A stretch of 31,462 bases of DNA. It comes from a virus (Duplodnaviria; Heunggongvirae; Uroviricota; Caudoviricetes). Below, in pieces: positions 6,663-31,462 of this stretch. The notes under the pieces are model-generated. The model saw only the letters and a program-made list of their open reading frames with translations. It ran no database searches and was not told the DNA's origin. The stretch lies in the IMG/VR virus record IMGVR_UViG_3300029415_000135. The stretch is one strand, 5' to 3'. Position numbers and translations under genes: made by a program. Each line of letters begins with the position of its first letter. The first letter of the stretch is position 1.

Positions 6663-7256
6663 CTATTTGTCCCGGTTGGCTAAGGGATGACACAATTTAT
6701 TCTTTGCCGCTGATGAGGGGAATTTTTTATAGAGCGTGGACAGGCCAATATCAAAAATCAGCGCCACGCGTTGACGTGATTCACCCGCAGCCAGCAACCG
6801 TCCTGCCTGTTCCCACTCACTCGCGGTGAGCTTCGGACGTCTGCCACCAATACGACCTTTAGCTCTGGCCGCTTCCAGTCCGGCGCGAGTCCGCTCGACA
6901 ATGAGTTCTCGTTCCATTTCAGCCAGGGCACCCATCACATGAAAGAAAAAACGCCCCATCGGCGTGCTGGTATCAATGGCATCCGTCAGGCTGCGAAAAT
7001 TAATGCCGCGTTCGCGCAGCTCCTCAACCAGAATGACCAGATGCCGCATACTACGCCCCAGCCGGTCCAGCTTCCAGACTACCAGTGTATCCCCCTCCGA
7101 TAATGTCCTGAGCAGTTTTTTCAGTCCCGGCCTGTCGGACTTCGTGCCGCTGATTTTGTCCTCAAAAATCAGCTCACATCCTGCACACTCCAGCGCGTTA
7201 CGCTGCAATTCCGTGTTCTGGTCATTTGTTGACACGCGTACATAGCCAATAAGCAT
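6663..7256 (-). CDS. serine-recombinase DNA invertase (Hin/Gin/Cin/Pin family), about 197 aa
   Basis: N-terminus MLIGYVRVSTNDQNTELQ carries the catalytic Ser of resolvase/invertase family proteins; C-terminal HTH region. ATG at 7254-7256 has GGGGG SD 6 nt upstream. Lies directly beside the invertible segment, as gin does in Mu. Confidence 0.88.
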   Translation of the reverse strand: MLIGYVRVSTNDQNTELQRNALECAGCELIFEDKISGTKSDRPGLKKLLRTLSEGDTLVVWKLDRLGRSMRHLVILVEELRERGINFRSLTDAIDTSTPMGRFFFHVMGALAEMERELIVERTRAGLEAARAKGRIGGRRPKLTASEWEQAGRLLAAGESRQRVALIFDIGLSTLYKKFPSSAAKNKLCHPLANRDK

Positions 7257-7311
7257 GAGCATCCCCCTGAATAAAAACCGGAGATGATGCCAGTTGCCCG
7301 TTATCTCTGCA

Positions 7312-7337
7312 TTTTCATAAACGTTGGTTTGGGAGAA
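7312..7337 (+). repeat. 26-bp hix/gix-like recombination site (outer end of invertible segment)
   Basis: TTTTCATAAACGTTGGTTTGGGAGAA; imperfect palindrome with half-sites resembling the TTATCnAAAACC Hin-family consensus; matches the site at 9187-9212 at 20/26 positions in inverted orientation. Confidence 0.75.
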
Positions 7338-7700
7338 GCGGCAAAACGGGATGTGGGTAACGGGCAAAACCAAATTCCTGATATGTCAGCGTGGGAGTGT
7401 GGGGGAGATACAACGACGGGATGGAGGCGAAGCCCGGATGGTTATATTGAACAATGGGGGCTAACTGAGGCCACAACAAATGAAGTTTTGATTAATTTTC
7501 CTATCCCATTTCCGACAGCCGTCATTTCTATTAATGAACATGACCAGGCTCCTGTGGCAGGGAAAATGTCAGTATGGCAATTCTATAAATTGACTAACTC
7601 AAATGTCATAGCAGAGAACCTGGGATCTCTTGATAAAGGAAATCCATCCTTCAATGTTCCAACTGTCGCTGGTTGCCGCTGGTTTGCTACAGGAAGATAA
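7338..7700 (+). CDS. alternative (currently silent) tail-fibre C-terminal segment, fused to H only after inversion
   Basis: In-frame ORF continuing from the crossover site (…GLGE-AAKRDVGNGQNQ…) with no start codon or SD of its own; stop at 7698-7700 directly before the tfa' start. Confidence 0.65.
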   Translation, partial: AAKRDVGNGQNQIPDMSAWECGGDTTTGWRRSPDGYIEQWGLTEATTNEVLINFPIPFPTAVISINEHDQAPVAGKMSVWQFYKLTNSNVIAENLGSLDKGNPSFNVPTVAGCRWFATGR

Positions 7701-7701
7701 A

Positions 7702-8142
7702 ATGAGTAAATATCTTTACGATGCTAAAACTAATATGTTTTACCCATTTACTCTGGAAAGTCAGTATAAGGAGTCTGGGTTATGGCCTCATAATGGAGTT
7801 GAAGTTGATGAGGATATATTTATTAAGTACCTGGCCCCACCTCCAGGGAAAGTGAGAGTTGCGGGTGATGATGGCTATCCTGCATGGGATGACGTACCGC
7901 CGCTAACTCATGAAGAACAACTGTCAGAAGCGGAACGAAAAAAACAGGCACTCATAAATCGAGTTAATGAATATATTAACAGTAAGCAGTGGCCAGGAAA
8001 GGCTGCTATTGGTCGTCTGAAAGGTGAGGAACTGGCGCAATATAATCTGTGGCTGGATTACCTGGACGCACTGGAAATGGTCGATACTTCCAGTGCTCCA
8101 GATATTGAATGGCCTACGCCTCCGGCAGTTCAGGCCAGATGA
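7702..8142 (+). CDS. alternative tail fibre assembly protein (Tfa/Mu U' type), 146 aa
   Basis: ATG at 7702 with AGGAAGA SD; C-terminus ...DTSSAPDIEWPTPP is characteristic of Tfa chaperones; 3' end overlaps the other tfa tail-to-tail. Confidence 0.75.
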   Translation: MSKYLYDAKTNMFYPFTLESQYKESGLWPHNGVEVDEDIFIKYLAPPPGKVRVAGDDGYPAWDDVPPLTHEEQLSEAERKKQALINRVNEYINSKQWPGKAAIGRLKGEELAQYNLWLDYLDALEMVDTSSAPDIEWPTPPAVQAR

Positions 8143-22407: not shown

Positions 22408-24030
22408 ATGGGTAGTGATATGCAAATTCAAAGAGGCGTAATTTGGCATACATACACAACACAATCGCCAGAATATCAAGATGCCGAGAAATTTAGTTCA
22501 GACTTGATAAATACAGGGTTGTTTCTTGCAATACTAACGCCACACAACACATTCAAATATTTATCAAAAAACACACCATCCTCAACAAAAATAAGCATGA
22601 GATATGAAAACAACGAAAATGCTGTTACTGTTGAGGGCGGTGATAAGATTCATGCGTCAGGTGTTTGCGCCCTAACTGCTACGGCTTTTTCCCAGTGTAT
22701 AAACATTAGACTCTCTGAAAGAAAGCTTTTTCACACACCAGGTAATAATTATTACGAAAACATAATATGTTGTCAAAAGCCAATCCTAGTAAAAAATAAC
22801 GATGTGGAATTTTTTATTCATCCAATTATTCGTCTCTATAAAAATGGGATAGCACATGTTACCTTTGTTGACACTGAGGAACGCAATGTTGATTTGAATG
22901 ATTTCATAAAAAACATTTTAAACCTACCTTTAAAACTAAACAGTTCGATTACTACCAGCATAGAGTTCGCCAAGAGTTCGTTACTGCTAGACTATTCAGG
23001 AATGCCACTACTTAGTAGACTGATAGCGAAGTGTAGTATTAAAAAGAGTTTAAAACTATTGAACGACAACTCTGAAGATCTAGAGGTTGGTGAATTTAAG
23101 GTTACAGGTAGATATATTGATTACACAAATTTAATGCAAATTCAGCATAATTTAAGTGACATCGCCAGATATGTGATTGCTATAATATTTGACAAAACAA
23201 AAAAAAGAACAATTAAAGATTATCTTTTAGGCAGAAATCTTTCTGAGTTTTATAACTTCTGGCAAGGTAAGCCAAGCGTCTATATCTTCGAGCACGATAA
23301 TCAAAAAAACAATGCCACTGACAATTTTCAGAGTAATAAGTCGTTAGTTTATTCATTGCTGGGCAAAAATCACCTATTAACAAACATAAAGCACACCAAG
23401 AAAATCATTGATCATCGTGCCTTTGATGATTTCAATTTTTTTTCTGAACAGTCTTTAGCACTGACTATACTTACATGTAAAGTTAAAAAAGAATTTTTTA
23501 CCGGGACATATACAGAAGAAAATCTGATGTGGGACAATCAGGTTAAGAGTGATCTTAGAGATTTCATTTCCTTTTCATATGATTCAACAATAGAAAAAAT
23601 TGGAAATGAAAAAAGCCATCTTGGCCTTGCCAAAATACAAGAAGACATCCTTTTATTTGAAGAGTGGCTTAGGATTTTCTCAAGGAAGTATGGAGAGATA
23701 CAAGACTTCACATTTAATACATTAAATTCAATCGATATAAAAAGGGCTCGTCAAAGCGTCATTGAATTGATAAAGTCAAGAATCCAAGTGCTAAAATTAA
23801 TTGATACCGACTTAAATGACAAAAGTAATAAGAAGATAACAATGGCCTTTGGTTTAATTGCATCGACATCATTATCCCCAATTTTAGTAAAGCCATTATT
23901 TGAAACACTAAACCTGTCACTTTTAATTAAGAAATCTGGACTCAAAAGCTATGAAGATGCAATTTACTTTGCCACATCCATGGTTTTGGTTTGGTTAATA
24001 ATAAAGCTATTAAACTTCAGGAGAAAATAG
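22408..24030 (+). CDS. hypothetical protein, 540 aa, AT-rich accessory gene at the P2 old/tin position; candidate anti-phage/abortive-infection protein
   Basis: Long intact ORF in a markedly AT-rich block, opposite in strand to the early operon, between cos and A. No Walker A or other motif recognised; two hydrophobic C-terminal segments (ITMAFGLIASTSLSPILV, AIYFATSMVLVWLIIKLL). Confidence 0.8.
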   Translation: MGSDMQIQRGVIWHTYTTQSPEYQDAEKFSSDLINTGLFLAILTPHNTFKYLSKNTPSSTKISMRYENNENAVTVEGGDKIHASGVCALTATAFSQCINIRLSERKLFHTPGNNYYENIICCQKPILVKNNDVEFFIHPIIRLYKNGIAHVTFVDTEERNVDLNDFIKNILNLPLKLNSSITTSIEFAKSSLLLDYSGMPLLSRLIAKCSIKKSLKLLNDNSEDLEVGEFKVTGRYIDYTNLMQIQHNLSDIARYVIAIIFDKTKKRTIKDYLLGRNLSEFYNFWQGKPSVYIFEHDNQKNNATDNFQSNKSLVYSLLGKNHLLTNIKHTKKIIDHRAFDDFNFFSEQSLALTILTCKVKKEFFTGTYTEENLMWDNQVKSDLRDFISFSYDSTIEKIGNEKSHLGLAKIQEDILLFEEWLRIFSRKYGEIQDFTFNTLNSIDIKRARQSVIELIKSRIQVLKLIDTDLNDKSNKKITMAFGLIASTSLSPILVKPLFETLNLSLLIKKSGLKSYEDAIYFATSMVLVWLIIKLLNFRRK

Positions 24031-24726: not shown

Positions 24727-27018
24727 TCAATCAATCTCCATTATTGAAACATTGGAATATCCCGGCCACTCATCAGCGACCGCATAACTGAATTTTTTCT
24801 CGCCATATGTCACCGTTGCGCCCCGCGCCAGTACATCCAGTTCCCACCGCTCCGGCGTGATACCGTGTTGTGCTAGGTCAAACCGGATGCGTGATATCTG
24901 GTCACGCTGCGATTTAGTCAGTCGCGCTGAAGGTGCTAATTCATCCGGCTTCAACGGTGATCGGTTTCTTTGTTGCCTGTTTTGAGGTTTAGCCCCTGCT
25001 TTTAGCGCGCCCCTGAGCACCTTCACGGCGTCCGGGTCATTCCAGTCGATCACCCCAGCATCAATGAGATTTATCACCGCTGCGGCTTGCTCAGACGGTG
25101 TGGGCGTCATATCCGTGTCGCTTCCGTTGGCCGGTAACCCACAGTTATTGACAGGACTCCGAGGCGCGGCGATGCCGCTTTTTAAAGTCAAAGGCTCAAC
25201 GACCGGCACTTTCGGAACAATGCGCCAGTCCGTCGTTCTGGTGATATGAATATGACGCGCGCCGAGATGCGGCGCGTAAATGCCGACCACTCTCTCGACT
25301 TCTTCCTCGTACTCGTTAACTTCATCCGACGGACTACGGGCGACCCTGACAGTCTGACAATCGCGCGGGACATTTGCCCCACCCTGCGCGCTGATATACA
25401 ACGCAAAATCACCACTGTCTGCGGCGGCGCGTGCAGCCTCGACGCGCTCGTCAAACTCATCAGCAATGCTGACGCCGCGCGGCAATTTGCGTAGTTCACG
25501 GTAAGCCCCCATTGTCGGCAGGCCAACCGTTTTAAATTGCGGGATGCGCCACGTTGACGCCCATGCGGTAACAGCCGCTGCAGTGTCTTTCAGCGGCCTG
25601 CCGGTGTCGTTATCGAGCTGACCATCCAGTGCATAGCCGTCGATGTTTTTTGAAATGTATTTCGCGATATATCCCGCAGCACCGCCCCGGTTAAGGTGTT
25701 TTGCCTGAAAACGGTTTCGCGCGGCTCCTCTTTCGTCGCCATCCTCTTTGAGCGCATAGCGACGCATGATTTCGATAATCTGGTTACGCTGGCGTGAATT
25801 ACAAAAAAGCATCATATGCCAGTGCGGCGTTCCGTCGTGGTGTGGCTCGACGACACGCAAACCGTAGACCTGTAAATCATTATCCTTGAATGCCGTGCGC
25901 ATCAGGCTCCAGATACGGCAGAGATAACGCTGCGCATCCTTTGGATTAAATGCCTCATCATTCCAGCCGTGATTTAGCTGGACGGTTTTACTTTCGCCTT
26001 TTCCGACCTGACGTGTCGGGTGATACTTTGACGGCGCGGTCAGAGTGATAAACATCCCCACATCACCCTCTGCGGCGGCGTAACGCTCAATACCGGCGAT
26101 GGTGTTCATCAGCTCCATCCGGCGAATTTCAGGATTAGAAATACTGCCCATCACCTTACTGATAAGGTCGATGCGCTCGCCGGTTTCCCTGTTTTCGAGG
26201 TCACACGATTTAAGAAATTCCAGATTTGCCTGGCGGCGTGCACGCACATCACGAATGGCATGTTTACTGGCATAAGGAGAACGGTCTTTATTGACCTCCC
26301 CGACAGCAATCAGTAACGCCTCATGCCAGCGCATACGCTGGCCTTTAAGCTGATGAGTCCACCACTCATCGTTAAACAGACGGGCAATGGCAGAATATGC
26401 CTGCCTCGTGGTCATCTGTCCTTTACGGTATTTTTTCCAGTAGAGAGGGGAAATATTGAAAGCACGTGCAGCGCCAGCAACATGACCATACAGATGCGCC
26501 TGCGCCTCATCTGTAAACAGCGATTCTTTCTCGCCATGTGCATCAACCCATGCATCGCAGAGTTCCTCATACATCATGAAAAGCTGCGATGAGATACGGG
26601 CGGCAAACTTTTTCAGCTCCTTGTCATTCATCCCCGGCAGACGCGCATAATGGTCACGCTCTGCCAAAAACAGCAACGACGCGTCGGTGTTCATTTCATG
26701 GCGCTGATTCACGCGCTCAATACGCGGCCATAAACGGCGCTGAAAAGTGGATGTGAGGAAATAAAACCCGTGCACCGGGCTTTTATTGCGCCGGATGTAG
26801 TCATAGCGTGAAGTAAACAGCGAGCGCAAAAAGTAAGGCAGGCGATTAATCGTGGATAAAACACCTTGCACCTGACGCATCTCGTCACGTGTAAGGGGTC
26901 TTTCGCGCCCGACGGCCTCGCGTGGCGCGTTCCATGCATAAGCACCGGTAAACGTCTCACCGGTGCCTGCGGCAAATGCTGACGGAGGGACAAAACGCCC
27001 GGAGGCTTTAACGGCCAT
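24727..27018 (-). CDS. A: replication initiation endonuclease (gpA, rolling-circle), about 763 aa
   Basis: Start taken at the Met of MAVKASGRFVPP… by analogy with recalled P2 gpA; strong similarity throughout, including the HWHMMLF motif region. The ORF track extends 14 codons upstream. Confidence 0.88.
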   Translation of the reverse strand: MAVKASGRFVPPSAFAAGTGETFTGAYAWNAPREAVGRERPLTRDEMRQVQGVLSTINRLPYFLRSLFTSRYDYIRRNKSPVHGFYFLTSTFQRRLWPRIERVNQRHEMNTDASLLFLAERDHYARLPGMNDKELKKFAARISSQLFMMYEELCDAWVDAHGEKESLFTDEAQAHLYGHVAGAARAFNISPLYWKKYRKGQMTTRQAYSAIARLFNDEWWTHQLKGQRMRWHEALLIAVGEVNKDRSPYASKHAIRDVRARRQANLEFLKSCDLENRETGERIDLISKVMGSISNPEIRRMELMNTIAGIERYAAAEGDVGMFITLTAPSKYHPTRQVGKGESKTVQLNHGWNDEAFNPKDAQRYLCRIWSLMRTAFKDNDLQVYGLRVVEPHHDGTPHWHMMLFCNSRQRNQIIEIMRRYALKEDGDERGAARNRFQAKHLNRGGAAGYIAKYISKNIDGYALDGQLDNDTGRPLKDTAAAVTAWASTWRIPQFKTVGLPTMGAYRELRKLPRGVSIADEFDERVEAARAAADSGDFALYISAQGGANVPRDCQTVRVARSPSDEVNEYEEEVERVVGIYAPHLGARHIHITRTTDWRIVPKVPVVEPLTLKSGIAAPRSPVNNCGLPANGSDTDMTPTPSEQAAAVINLIDAGVIDWNDPDAVKVLRGALKAGAKPQNRQQRNRSPLKPDELAPSARLTKSQRDQISRIRFDLAQHGITPERWELDVLARGATVTYGEKKFSYAVADEWPGYSNVSIMEID

Positions 27019-27283
27019 ATGAGCCAAAAGCCTCTGAACAACGCTTGCTGAGTTGCTCAACCTGCGCGTTTAAATCAGCAAAAGACTTTGCGCTTCCGGT
27101 CAGAATATCGTGATGCATCAGGCCGGAAACAAGCTGGCTTAATTTCGGGTAATAACCAACCACCGCCAGCCATTCCTGACCGGCGTTTTTACCGCTTTCA
27201 GCTCTCTTTTTCTCGTGGAGAATAAACTGAAAGCTGTCACTGGTAACGACATAACGTTCGCCAATTTCAATACGAATACTCAT
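27008..27283 (-). CDS. hypothetical early protein, 91 aa (P2 orf83 position)
   Basis: ORF coupled to the upstream gene by ATGA overlap; end overlaps the A start. Confidence 0.6.
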   Translation of the reverse strand: MSIRIEIGERYVVTSDSFQFILHEKKRAESGKNAGQEWLAVVGYYPKLSQLVSGLMHHDILTGSAKSFADLNAQVEQLSKRCSEAFGSYGR

Positions 27284-28594: not shown

Positions 28595-28827
28595 TTCCAG
28601 ACCCTCCGGCTTTTCAGAAAGGTCAGAGCCTTTTTTAACGGACTCTGTTTTTTGGTACGGATAATGATTCCCTTGCGCCCCTTCCCGTGGGTGATGGTGA
28701 AGTCAATCGCCCTGGGGCTTTCGTTACGCAATAACTGAGCAATACAACGAGGCTCGTTCATCCTTTCCACCTTAAGCCGCACGGCCATGTCTTGATTTGC
28801 TGTAACTAATGCGATTTTTCCAGTCAT
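28591..28827 (-). CDS. hypothetical small protein, about 78 aa (P2 orf78 position); start uncertain
   Basis: ORF ending in an ATGA overlap with the B start; several candidate Met starts (28851, 28827, 28788); overlaps the cox 3' end. Confidence 0.45.
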   Translation of the reverse strand: MTGKIALVTANQDMAVRLKVERMNEPRCIAQLLRNESPRAIDFTITHGKGRKGIIIRTKKQSPLKKALTFLKSRRVWK

Positions 28828-29128
28828 GCCATTCTGTCGGAGCTTCATCAACTAGCTGGGCTGCGTACTTGTCCCACTCACGACGATTAATCCATAACTC
28901 AGCATGACCGCCCGGCTTTAATGGGTCCGTCATATAAAAGGCTGGTAACTTGCCTGCTTTCGCCATTTCAGCAACAGCACGAGGCGTCTTACCGATGTAA
29001 AGAGCAAAACCCTCTTTCGAGAGCAAATCCGACGGTGCGGCTGCAAGTTTGATGTCACATTTTTTACTTTTTGTGAGATCAGATACTTTTTCTCCAACAT
29101 CGTTATTCATTTCTGATCCAATACTCAT
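28772..29128 (-). CDS. cox: Cox-like excisionase/early transcriptional regulator, about 118 aa
   Basis: First gene of the early operon, divergent from C; region …GKLPAFYMTDP… resembles recalled P2 Cox (…GKLPVIDMTDP…). ATG at 29126-29128 with GAGGAT SD; ORF-track start is TTG. Confidence 0.7.
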   Translation of the reverse strand: MSIGSEMNNDVGEKVSDLTKSKKCDIKLAAAPSDLLSKEGFALYIGKTPRAVAEMAKAGKLPAFYMTDPLKPGGHAELWINRREWDKYAAQLVDEAPTEWHDWKNRISYSKSRHGRAA

Positions 29129-29232
29129 TTTGATATCCTCAACTTTGGTGCCATTCAATCAGAGCTATTTGAAGCCGCTCTGCGTTGTTCTGGCGTGTCG
29201 CATACAACATAAATTACGAGATACGACAATTC
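29129..29232. promoter_or_regulatory. immunity switch region: divergent early (Pe) and repressor (Pc) promoters with C/Cox operators
   Basis: 104-bp intergenic region between divergent cox and C genes; arrangement as in P2; individual operators not resolved. Confidence 0.5.
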
Positions 29233-29544
29233 ATGTCAAATACACAAATCACATCTCAAGCAGAGAAACTCGCACTTATTCGGGAATCAGAAAGAATGAC
29301 AAGGAAGCAAGTAGCTGAATTAACTGGAATTAACTACAACACCTATGCTGGATATGAGCAGGGAAAAGTAAAGATGTCTTTTGACGCAGGTATGAAATTT
29401 TTCAAGCCAGAAAGATTTCGCAAGTACCGTGACTGGTTCATGTTTGATGAAACTGATCCCGCTGGCGGACAAATAGCCCCGGCGCTCGCGCACATTGGGC
29501 AAGACTCAACAACCTTGCACCACTCAGACCAAAAGACTGGCTGA
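29233..29544 (+). CDS. C: immunity repressor C, 103 aa
   Basis: From ATG 29233: MSNTQITSQAEKLALIRESE… with HTH region and C-terminus …GQIAPALAHIGQDSTTLHHSDQKTG, very close to recalled P2 C (…GQIAPALAHFGQNETTSPHSGQKTG). Confidence 0.85.
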   Translation: MSNTQITSQAEKLALIRESERMTRKQVAELTGINYNTYAGYEQGKVKMSFDAGMKFFKPERFRKYRDWFMFDETDPAGGQIAPALAHIGQDSTTLHHSDQKTG

Positions 29545-29637
29545 CGATTTATTCAGCATATGTGTGCAGTAAATGTACGAAAGAAAATTGCATTAATTTT
29601 CAAGTAGTAGAAGTAAACAGCGTCATCGGAGGGCTTT

Positions 29638-30633
29638 ATGTCTATTAAAAAGCTCGATGATGGTCGTTATGAAGTGGACGTCAGACCGCAGGGTGCAGAT
29701 GGAAAACGTATCAGGCGGAAATTTAAAACTAAAGGTGAAGCTCAAGCATTCGAACGTCATGTCCTGGTTAACTACCACAACAAAGAGTGGTTGGAGAAGC
29801 CGGCCGACCGCCGAACTCTTACAGAGTTGTTAGGCAGATGGTGGATATATCACGGAAAATCACATGAGCGTGGAGATATTGAACGAGGGCGTTTGACGAC
29901 AATAATCGCCAAATTTGCCGAGATGGGAGTGTCCAGGGCGGACCAGCTAACAAAGAAAACGATAACTGATTATCGCGTTGTAATGATGAACGATGGCCTA
30001 AAACCAGCCAGCGTAAATCGGCATCTGGCAATAATGAGCGGGATGTTCACCAAGTTAATTGACGCCGGTGAATATCACTCTCACAACCCGTTCCGTGAGG
30101 TTAAGCGGTTACGTGAAGCTGTTACGGAAATGGCTTTTTTGTCCAGTGAAGAGATTACGCGGCTGTTATCCATGCTTGATGGTGATGAGTTAAATGCAAC
30201 TCTGGTCTGCCTTTCTACTGGTGGACGCTGGAGTGAAGTGTCTAATTTGAAAGCTGAACACATCATTAACCAGATGGTTACGTTTATGAAAACTAAAAAC
30301 GGAAAGCGCAGGACAATTCCCGTTTCGCAGGACCTGATTAAACGGATCAAGACCAAAAATTCAGGCAGGCTTTTTAATGCCAGTTACTACAAAGTGCGCA
30401 ACGCTCTCAGGGAAGTAAAACCCGATTTACCTGACGGACAGGCAGTGCATGTTTTGAGGCATACATTTGCCACACATTTTATAATGAATGGAGGTAACAT
30501 AATCACATTGCAGCGCATCCTGGGTCATTCTAACATTCAGCAAACTATGACCTACGCACACTTTGCACCGGATTTCTTACAAGATGCTGTGACTCTTAAC
30601 CCGGTGTCAGGAATGTCCATAATGCGTCCATAA
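29638..30633 (+). CDS. int: tyrosine integrase (P2 Int family), 331 aa
   Basis: N-terminus MSIKKLDDGRYEVDVRPQG… resembles P2 Int; C-terminal catalytic region with …HVLRHTFATHF… and …LGHSNIQQTMTYAH… (R, H-x-x-R, Y); GGAGGG SD. Confidence 0.88.
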   Translation: MSIKKLDDGRYEVDVRPQGADGKRIRRKFKTKGEAQAFERHVLVNYHNKEWLEKPADRRTLTELLGRWWIYHGKSHERGDIERGRLTTIIAKFAEMGVSRADQLTKKTITDYRVVMMNDGLKPASVNRHLAIMSGMFTKLIDAGEYHSHNPFREVKRLREAVTEMAFLSSEEITRLLSMLDGDELNATLVCLSTGGRWSEVSNLKAEHIINQMVTFMKTKNGKRRTIPVSQDLIKRIKTKNSGRLFNASYYKVRNALREVKPDLPDGQAVHVLRHTFATHFIMNGGNIITLQRILGHSNIQQTMTYAHFAPDFLQDAVTLNPVSGMSIMRP

Positions 30634-30664
30634 ACCAGAGTTAACTAGAGCCAATTGAAGCGAT

Positions 30665-31462
30665 ATGAGTAATTTAACTAATTGTAATACAACAGAAAAT
30701 ACCGCTGCGGCGGGGGCTACCAAGTCAGTTATTGGTCGCATTCACTCCTTTGAATCCTGTGGAACCGTAGACGGCCCGGGTATTCGCTTTATCACCTTTT
30801 TCCAGGGCTGCCTGATGCGCTGCCTGTATTGTCATAACCGCGACACCTGGGATACGCATGGCGGTAAAGAAGTTACCGTTGAAGATTTAATGAAAGAGGT
30901 GGTGACCTATCGCCACTTTATGAACGCTTCCGGCGGCGGCGTTACCGCATCCGGCGGTGAGGCAATCCTACAAGCTGAGTTTGTTCGTGACTGGTTCCGC
31001 GCCTGCAAAAAAGAAGGCATTCATACCTGTCTGGACACCAACGGTTTTGTTCGTCGTTACGATCCGGTGATTGATGAACTGCTGGAAGTAACCGACCTGG
31101 TAATGCTCGATCTCAAACAGATGAACGACGAGATCCACCAAAATCTGGTTGGAGTTTCCAACCACCGCACGCTGGAGTTCGCCAAATATCTGGCGAACAA
31201 AAATGTGAAGGTGTGGATCCGCTACGTTGTTGTCCCAGGCTGGTCTGACGATGACGATTCAGCGCATCGCCTCGGTGAATTTACCCGTGATATGGGCAAC
31301 GTTGAGAAAATCGAACTCCTCCCCTACCACGAGCTGGGCAAACACAAATGGGTGGCAATGGGTGAAGAGTACAAACTCGACGGTGTTAAACCACCTAAGA
31401 AAGAGACCATGGAACGCGTGAAAGGCATTCTTGAGCAGTACGGTCATAAGGTAATGTTCTAA
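30665..31462 (+). CDS. pflA: pyruvate formate-lyase 1 activating enzyme (radical SAM), host gene; ORF as drawn is 265 aa
   Basis: From [19 protein letters not shown]… the translation matches recalled E. coli PflA, including the CxxxCxxC radical-SAM motif (CLMRCLYC). The codon at the recalled initiator position (30722-30724) is AAG; first in-frame ATG is at 30665. Confidence 0.85.

Follow-up and report, generated by a model that had tools for sequence, protein, structure and literature searches.

Analysis of a 31,462 nucleotide stretch of viral DNA (IMG/VR record IMGVR_UViG_3300029415_000135; the whole stretch is referred to here as the window) revealed it to be almost wholly a P2-like (Peduovirus) prophage whose right end is joined to the host gene pflA. 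The product, PflA, is the activating enzyme of pyruvate formate-lyase, which is central to mixed-acid fermentation. The prophage had crossed over within the first five codons of pflA, so that the native start codon and everything upstream of it were displaced, and the phage arm now at this position carried an ATG and 19 further codons in frame with the remainder of the gene. The best explanation of these data as a whole, and one in which we have considerable confidence, is that the phage encodes a replacement 5′-end which keeps pflA functional in the lysogen.

The integrase gene ended at 30631–30633 and was separated by a 31 bp spacer (30634–30664, plus strand) from the first in-frame ATG of the pflA reading frame (30665–30667), and all coordinates given for this junction by the original prediction, which was made from the sequence alone, held. 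The spacer contained an in-frame TGA (30656–30658) and a weak, purine-rich motif resembling a Shine-Dalgarno (SD) sequence, GAAG (30657–30660). Because the TGA lies just upstream, the ATG at 30665 is the first possible start. It is also the sole canonical in-frame start after the TGA; the next in-frame methionine is codon 51 of the fusion, within the radical-SAM cysteine motif. The phage-encoded leader (30665–30724, plus strand), which is also found in the attP of free phages, comprises this ATG and 19 codons in the pflA frame, the last of which is AAG. It is followed by host pflA from codon 2 to the stop (30725–31462, plus strand; NCBIfam NF008356). Together they form a chimeric open reading frame (ORF) of 265 amino acids (30665–31462, plus strand) that RefSeq annotates as pflA (WP_000067977.1).

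The original prediction had noted that the codon at the expected PflA start reads AAG. A comparison with the prophage-free pflB-pflA region, which in K-12-like sequence reads ...caccgcaATGTCAGTTATTGGTCGC, bore this out: the AAG at 30722–30724 precedes TCA GTT ATT GGT CGC at the site of the pflA ATG in prophage-free E. coli, and the change from T to A in the start codon is genuine. PflA is 265 amino acids long in the window and 246 in the prophage-free genome. Residues 21–265 of the fusion were identical to the crystallised E. coli PflA chain (PDB 3C8F), and the PflA equivalog NF008356 matched with 523.5 bits (cut-off 375) over residues 21–265 only, leaving the leader outside the profile. The CX3CX2C motif was intact (CLMRCLYC). 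AlphaFold predicted the leader to be disordered, with a predicted local distance difference test (pLDDT) score below 50 for residues 1–18 and the first strand of the fold beginning at residue 24. The target gene was thus neither truncated nor without a start, as a disrupted gene would be; it was a continuous 265 amino acid ORF with an ATG, kept across lineages and in remnants of the prophage.

The att sites showed the integration to be site-specific, as attP, attB, attL and attR shared a core and attL and attR were exact recombinants of the other two. attP (...accaAGTCAGTTATTGGTgaCATTttttga) lies directly 3′ of the integrase gene in the free phages S164 and vB_YpM_46, where the sequence reads ...gcgggggctaccaAGTCAGTTATTGGTgaCATTttttgatatc. 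attB (...cgcaATGTCAGTTATTGGTCGCATTCAC) was taken from the prophage-free sequence ...caccgcaATGTCAGTTATTGGTCGCATTCACTCC. The partner of the window junction, which the original prediction had placed outside the window, lies just beyond it and was recovered from strain 2013C-4830; the junction segment of this strain (window 30500–30900) was 100% identical to that of the window. Its attL (...cgcaATGTCAGTTATTGGTGACATTTTTTGA) reads ...caccgcaATGTCAGTTATTGGTGACATTTTTTGATATC, followed by the ogr terminator. attL consisted of the host left arm and the phage right arm, and attR, in the window, of the phage left arm and the host right arm. In 2013C-4830 (L006, ~35040–35065) the native pflA promoter region, SD and ATG left at attL encoded only an eight-codon frame, MSVIGDIF*, running into the ogr terminator.

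attP and attB were identical over 13 bp, GTCAGTTATTGGT (30724–30736), a block that covers pflA codons 1–5. Partial matches flanked it, giving an imperfect core from about 30720 to 30742; phage homology ended at 30742 and host homology started at about 30721. Since in the window the base to the left of the block is that of the phage (A) and the bases to its right are those of the host (CG), the crossover lies within the block, in pflA codons 1–5, and the junction is inside the 5′-end of pflA, with the native upstream region and start codon displaced, as had been proposed. The AAG was supplied by the phage arm and so belongs to attP; free phage genomes carried it there (...ggggctaccaAGTCAGTTATTGGTgaCATT), and it was a regular feature of attP in most lineages. 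The whole pflB-pflA intergenic region, in which the pflA promoter lies according to the older pfl/act literature, stayed at attL with the native ATG, separating the native promoter from pflA. In free phages the leader was part of a 27-codon mini-ORF ending just past the core. Two direct repeats, GTCCATAA (30613–30620 and 30626–30633, plus strand), were read from the sequence as candidates for the Int arm-type sites on the P arm. The other attP arm of free phages held the related repeats GTCCACA and GACCACA, and by analogy both sets look like P2-type Int arm sites.

A search of complete E. coli genomes with a 401 nt query spanning the 3′-end of the integrase gene, the leader and the 5′-end of pflA (coverage ≥80%) found the junction in 405 of 5426 genomes; in the remaining genomes, homology to the query began only at about 30721. 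The exact 265 amino acid protein was present on at least 1000 contigs, and PGAP called the gene intact. A near-identical leader was fused to Klebsiella PflA on 336 contigs, and an E. albertii genome had the identical arrangement.

The same layout was found with considerably diverged integrases. In three species of Scandinavium, in Pseudescherichia vulneris and in Rahnella ecdela, whose integrases were 76–80% identical to that of the window, the integrase stop was followed by ~31 bp, ATG AGT AAT/C TTA... and pflA. Of the 80 integrase relatives taken from IMG/VR, most were on predicted prophage contigs that end exactly at the integrase stop; the 10 with downstream sequence provided further Rahnella-type and E. 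coli-type copies. A Citrobacter portucalensis contig carried an intact cox-C-int region followed by MSNLTHCKDKENTAITAPVK-AVIGR. Protein searches added leader variants, the first short-query search having given mostly fragments that were used for variants only. The ATG lay at a constant distance from pflA GGTCGCAT throughout, so that the leader was always 60 nt. It began with MSNL or MTNL, and 9–14 of the 19 codons differed between lineages. Over 7 lineages the pflA frame of the leader contained no stop codon; the two remaining sense frames contained 21 and 24. By shuffling, the chance of an open leader frame was 0.13–0.27 per lineage, figures that cannot simply be multiplied because the lineages are related. 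Unrelated natural N-terminal extensions of 16–20 amino acids were found on PflA of Providencia (P0127) and of P0132/L097, in which pflA directly follows pflB and there is no phage, indicating that the PflA N-terminus tolerates additions. On another IMG/VR contig (L090; 3300021966_000302, ~2490–2700) an integrase 70% identical to that of the window lay directly upstream of the start of a gene other than pflA, putatively pyrE from the first residues of its product. Integration 5′ to a conserved gene may thus occur in this sister lineage as well.

The leader was also retained where the integrase had decayed. It was free of indels and stops in three or four such remnants, namely Salmonella (L094), L098, L101 and probably L095 as the fourth. 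In the Salmonella enterica sequence (LR134190.1, L094) the order was pflB, a terminator, sopD2 (minus strand), ~290 bp aligning to the 3′-end of the integrase gene with stops and indels, the leader and pflA; the leader-pflA sequence was intact, reading ATG AGT AAC TTA ... AAA AAG CCG GTT ATT GGT CGC. L098 had focA, pflB, a terminator, ~190 bp of a Rahnella-type integrase 3′-end with indels, and leader-pflA. In L101 a heavily decayed integrase fragment was followed by AAGGAAT ATG GGT AAT TTA ... (MGNLIGCIATEEIATATTVK). When aligned with intact relatives, the 260 nt upstream of the leader contained 5–23 gap runs per remnant and the 60 nt leader contained none, the counts being approximate as these alignments were at 60–66% identity. 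The integrase is dead in these remnants, so attP and recombination can no longer be the constraint, and it must be the reading frame that is under selection.

Two 265 amino acid PflA forms of Salmonella, with the leaders MSNLTNCITNES... and MSNLTDCITNES..., were each present on at least 1000 contigs and were named 'MULTISPECIES ... [Salmonella]'. Judged from these contig counts, to which L094 as a single frameshift-rich assembly adds the genomic context, the leader form is the mainstream PflA of Salmonella. Salmonella has a working pyruvate formate-lyase and a formate-producing mixed-acid fermentation. Taken with the mainstream leader form, this indicates that leader-PflA works. Of the two outcomes put forward by the original prediction, the N-terminal extension from ATG 30665 was therefore supported, as the leader was open across genera and kept in remnants, and the loss of normal initiation was not favoured.

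In L094 (1456–3000), sopD2 lies between pflB and the decayed integrase-family fragment, directly upstream of leader-pflA. The sopD2 fragments scored 210 and 166 bits against the SopD2 equivalog, and 79 and 88 bits against SopD. The position between pflB and the integrase remnant suggests that a P2-like prophage once integrated at this att site may have left the sopD2 locus as its remnant, with sopD2 as its cargo. In E. coli strain 2013C-4830 the prophage with the identical junction was itself degraded: IS3 and IS2 had inserted, cox was frameshifted and the A, tape-measure and D genes were truncated. In E. coli too, the pflA site thus stays occupied after the phage has ceased to be viable.

Several observations weigh against a functional 5′-end supplied by the phage. 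The leader peptide was weakly conserved, with MSNL-x-x-C and a Thr/Asn/Glu/Ala-rich composition the only features to persist, and no purifying selection at the peptide level was seen across the 7 lineages, in which nonsynonymous changes dominated and the variable columns by codon position were 9/14/15. The fixed 60 nt length in intact phages could also reflect attP spacing, and one antisense frame was stop-free across the leader in all lineages. A promoter consensus scan of the window did no better than chance (2 sites against 3.0 expected from shuffled sequence), and scans of the Salmonella and L098 remnants gave nothing above chance and nothing conserved. The SD before ATG 30665 is weak; that of native pflA is poorly spaced too, with GGAG 10 nt from the ATG. 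Finally, a review lists the P2-like prophage ECA29 as disrupting pflA in Pectobacterium atrosepticum (PMC13492144). The constraint on the leader is the presence of the ATG, an open frame and a fixed length, as would be seen for a disordered linker, and not a specific peptide function.

The last two of these points favour an explanation in which integration knocks out pflA by removing its promoter and start, and the upstream in-frame ATG is a coincidence picked up by annotation pipelines. The native ATG is indeed gone, and an open 19-codon frame in any single sequence would have the chance of 0.13–0.27 given above. However, the frame was open in 7 of 7 diverged lineages, set against 21 and 24 stops in the other frames, and the leader was intact in three or four independent remnants beside decayed integrase sequence. 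The leader form is also the mainstream PflA of Salmonella, and pflA showed no decay in lysogens, in which the exact protein recurred as described. We consider a knockout improbable.

Translation might alternatively start natively, at the AAG or a nearby non-canonical codon, with GGGGG as its SD, and yield a near-native PflA. The GGGGG run pointed out by the original prediction is present at 30712–30716, 5 nt upstream of the AAG, and G-rich or GAGG-like motifs stood at the same place in Scandinavium and Rahnella. The native start position held an ATG in Rahnella-type elements and a GTG in L098, making a second start possible in those lineages. The run was nevertheless not conserved, being missing in Salmonella (GCTGATAAAAAG), Citrobacter (GCACCTGTAAAG), L095 and L101, and so provides no evidence for initiation at the AAG; the upstream ATG and open frame were kept in all of them. 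AAG is moreover a very poor initiator in E. coli. This route to PflA appears quite improbable.

The 60 nt block could also be conserved only as attP DNA, for spacing or for IHF and Int sites, or for an antisense ORF of 44 amino acids, with the open sense frame as a by-product. The strict 60 nt length without indels in intact phages, conservation of the first ~25 nt at the DNA level and the stop-free antisense frame all fit this explanation. Against it, the block was free of indels and stops in remnants without a working integrase. The antisense stretch had variable ends and no conserved start (there was none in Rahnella L011 or in L101), and its ATG, where present, was the complement of the conserved pflA GGT CGC AT. 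The antisense ORF itself (30741–30607, minus strand), which is hydrophobic and overlaps the leader and the 3′-end of the integrase gene, was judged to be a mirror artefact, and conservation as attP DNA or antisense coding sequence is, in our view, very improbable as the whole explanation. That the A at 30723 arose through an error of sequencing or assembly, with a normal ATG present, had nothing in its favour beyond the K-12 sequence and can be dismissed, as can a private mutation, because the same base occurred in all 405 complete genomes with the junction, in E. albertii and in the genomes of ~20 free phages that had been sequenced independently.

The chimeric gene would now be transcribed from the prophage. 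A plus-strand terminator scan of 28900–30900 found none, and the repressor gene C and int both point towards pflA. In P2, C is the first gene of the C-int operon, both genes of which are read from the lysogenic promoter Pc. With no terminator between int and pflA, read-through from the prophage is possible, and by analogy with P2 the likely source of pflA transcription is read-through of the lysogenic C-int operon. A weak candidate promoter from the consensus scan, TTAACC-16-CATAAT (30596–30623, plus strand), lies in the 3′-end of the integrase gene and may also contribute; −10-like hexamers similar to CATAAT were found in Citrobacter, Scandinavium and Rahnella, and not in Salmonella. If read-through holds, pflA would be expressed constitutively in the lysogen, with a drop on induction.

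On this evidence, a P2-like temperate phage takes the first five codons of pflA as attB and recombines within the 13 bp block. The native promoter, ribosome-binding site and ATG are left at attL, ~30 kb away, and the rest of pflA is joined to the phage arm behind the integrase gene, which brings the weak SD, the ATG at 30665 and another 19 codons that are in frame with pflA. PflA of the lysogen would then differ from the native enzyme by Lys in place of Met1 and by 19 extra N-terminal residues, probably disordered, and would stay functional. In Salmonella, a relative would have integrated at the same site, probably with sopD2 as cargo, after which the element would have decayed and the phage leader become the normal 5′-end of pflA.

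A broader account can be offered only tentatively, as a possibility that is less probable than not. A Peduovirus lineage may carry a dedicated surrogate 5′-end, made up of a start codon and a disordered leader of 20 codons, that lets it use the highly conserved first codons of pflA as attB in many Enterobacterales genera without the loss of pyruvate formate-lyase activation. pflA would thereby come under prophage control, tied to the C-int transcript and falling when Cox switches the phage to lytic growth, and a Salmonella prophage would have delivered sopD2 and then decayed, its leader staying behind to provide pflA permanently with an N-terminus and a control region.

The remainder of the window was consistent with this identification of the prophage. 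Its left end begins in ogr, and the ORF map showed the P2 gene order, in agreement with the ogrK, D and tail annotations of matching genomes: ogr was followed by D, U, T, E and the tail, baseplate, lysis and capsid genes (left part of the window, minus strand), and the late genes by the terminase and portal genes (plus strand) and a cargo region. Further to the right were the replication gene A (24727–27060, minus strand), a Cox-family regulator of excision and transcription belonging to the P2-type switch region (28772–29158, minus strand; Pfam PF10743 Phage_Cox, E = 1.9e-29), a C-type immunity repressor (29233–29544, plus strand) and the tyrosine integrase (29638–30633, plus strand, ending in TAA; PF24624 Int_N, E = 2.8e-22; PF00589 Phage_integrase, E = 1.3e-18). 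The repressor matched HTH_3 and HTH_31, and matching phage records name it as a helix-turn-helix, C or immunity repressor protein. The late region and the cox-C-int region were 94–99.5% identical to Peduovirus records, and the integrase region was 94–99% identical to Peduovirus integrase regions at the DNA level. The tyrosine recombinase gene adjoins attP, with 31 bp between its stop and the leader and 90 bp between its stop and the core.

The prophage of strain 101EVA, the best match to the left end of the window, was rejected as a source of attL, since it was a different P2-like prophage, at yegQ. Its late region (ogr, D, U, T) was 99.7% identical to the window, yet it had the yegQ locus and a different integration module, which shows that P2-like phages exchange their int-att modules in mosaic fashion. 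An orphan ORF of 540 amino acids (22408–24030, plus strand) occupied the old/tin cargo hot spot of P2, which is flanked by the portal gene and gene A; Pfam and PADLOC searches gave no match for this ORF at E ≤ 1e-3, and it could be an anti-phage defence gene. A serine recombinase or invertase (6663–7373, minus strand; PF00239, 5e-52, plus HTH_7) adjoined a C-terminal tail-fibre fragment (7284–7700, plus strand) and a tail-fibre assembly gene (7630–8142, plus strand), the latter two in the opposite orientation to the main tail-fibre genes. This segment (6663–8142) looks like an invertible host-range segment of the Gin/Cin type.

PflA would accordingly be made from a phage-derived 5′-end in ~7% of complete E. 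coli genomes, in many Klebsiella and apparently in Salmonella as a genus. The 265 amino acid annotation is probably right, and the AAG should be neither 'corrected' nor taken for the mark of a pseudogene. In lysogens and in Salmonella, pflA may be regulated differently from what is described for K-12, and its regulation may be linked to the switch of the prophage. Cargo of a P2-like prophage at the pflA att site would offer a concrete origin for the Salmonella sopD2 locus.

The closest characterised parallel is HK022 at torS, where a mapped phage promoter drives torS after loss of the native promoter (Carey et al. 2019, eLife 8:e49081; PMC6814406). Like the pflA phage, HK022 is a temperate coliphage that integrates 5′ to a host gene, directs its integrase gene towards that gene and separates the gene from its native promoter; it too is widespread among wild E. 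coli strains, with an effect on anaerobic metabolism (PMC6814406). HK022 inserts upstream of the torS coding sequence and leaves the start codon and protein unchanged, whereas the pflA phage crosses over in codons 1–5, replaces the start codon and adds an N-terminus. The HK022 promoter was mapped experimentally; the pflA phage has only the candidate site at 30596–30623, which did no better than chance.

Phage 21 and e14 integrate into the 3′-end of icd, and other phages into the 3′-ends of tRNA genes, each carrying a copy of the end that it displaces. As with the pflA phage, attB lies in a conserved gene, which the phage arm makes whole and functional again. These phages make good a lost 3′-end by means of a near-identical duplicate, whereas the pflA phage replaces a 5′-end with an unrelated surrogate consisting of a start, a leader and an upstream control region. 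The int-attP module of P2 resembles that of the window, with cox and C-int followed directly by attP and arm-type direct repeats on both arms; the window integrase differs in specificity and in attB (pflA codons 1–5), P2 itself sitting at other loci. SopE-phi is an intact P2-like Salmonella phage at ssrA with a type III effector as cargo. It parallels the sopD2 locus as a P2-like phage with an effector gene near the prophage end, but the sopD2 element survives as a remnant whose phage origin is drawn only from the integrase fragment and the leader.

ECA29 of Pectobacterium atrosepticum is, like the prophage in the window, a P2-family prophage that targets pflA (PMC13492144, its reference 82). 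It is described there as a gene disruption. A literature search, incomplete for older papers on P2 att sites, found no description of P2-like integration at E. coli pflA and none of a phage origin for the Salmonella PflA N-terminus, the remark on ECA29 in the review being the only related statement found. The extended ORF itself was already annotated in RefSeq. What is new relative to the known cases is the surrogate for a 5′ coding end, the chimeric host enzyme and its mainstream status in Salmonella: known examples restore 3′-ends or replace a promoter only, and the pflA phage indicates that the 5′ coding end of a conserved gene can be targeted without destroying the gene.

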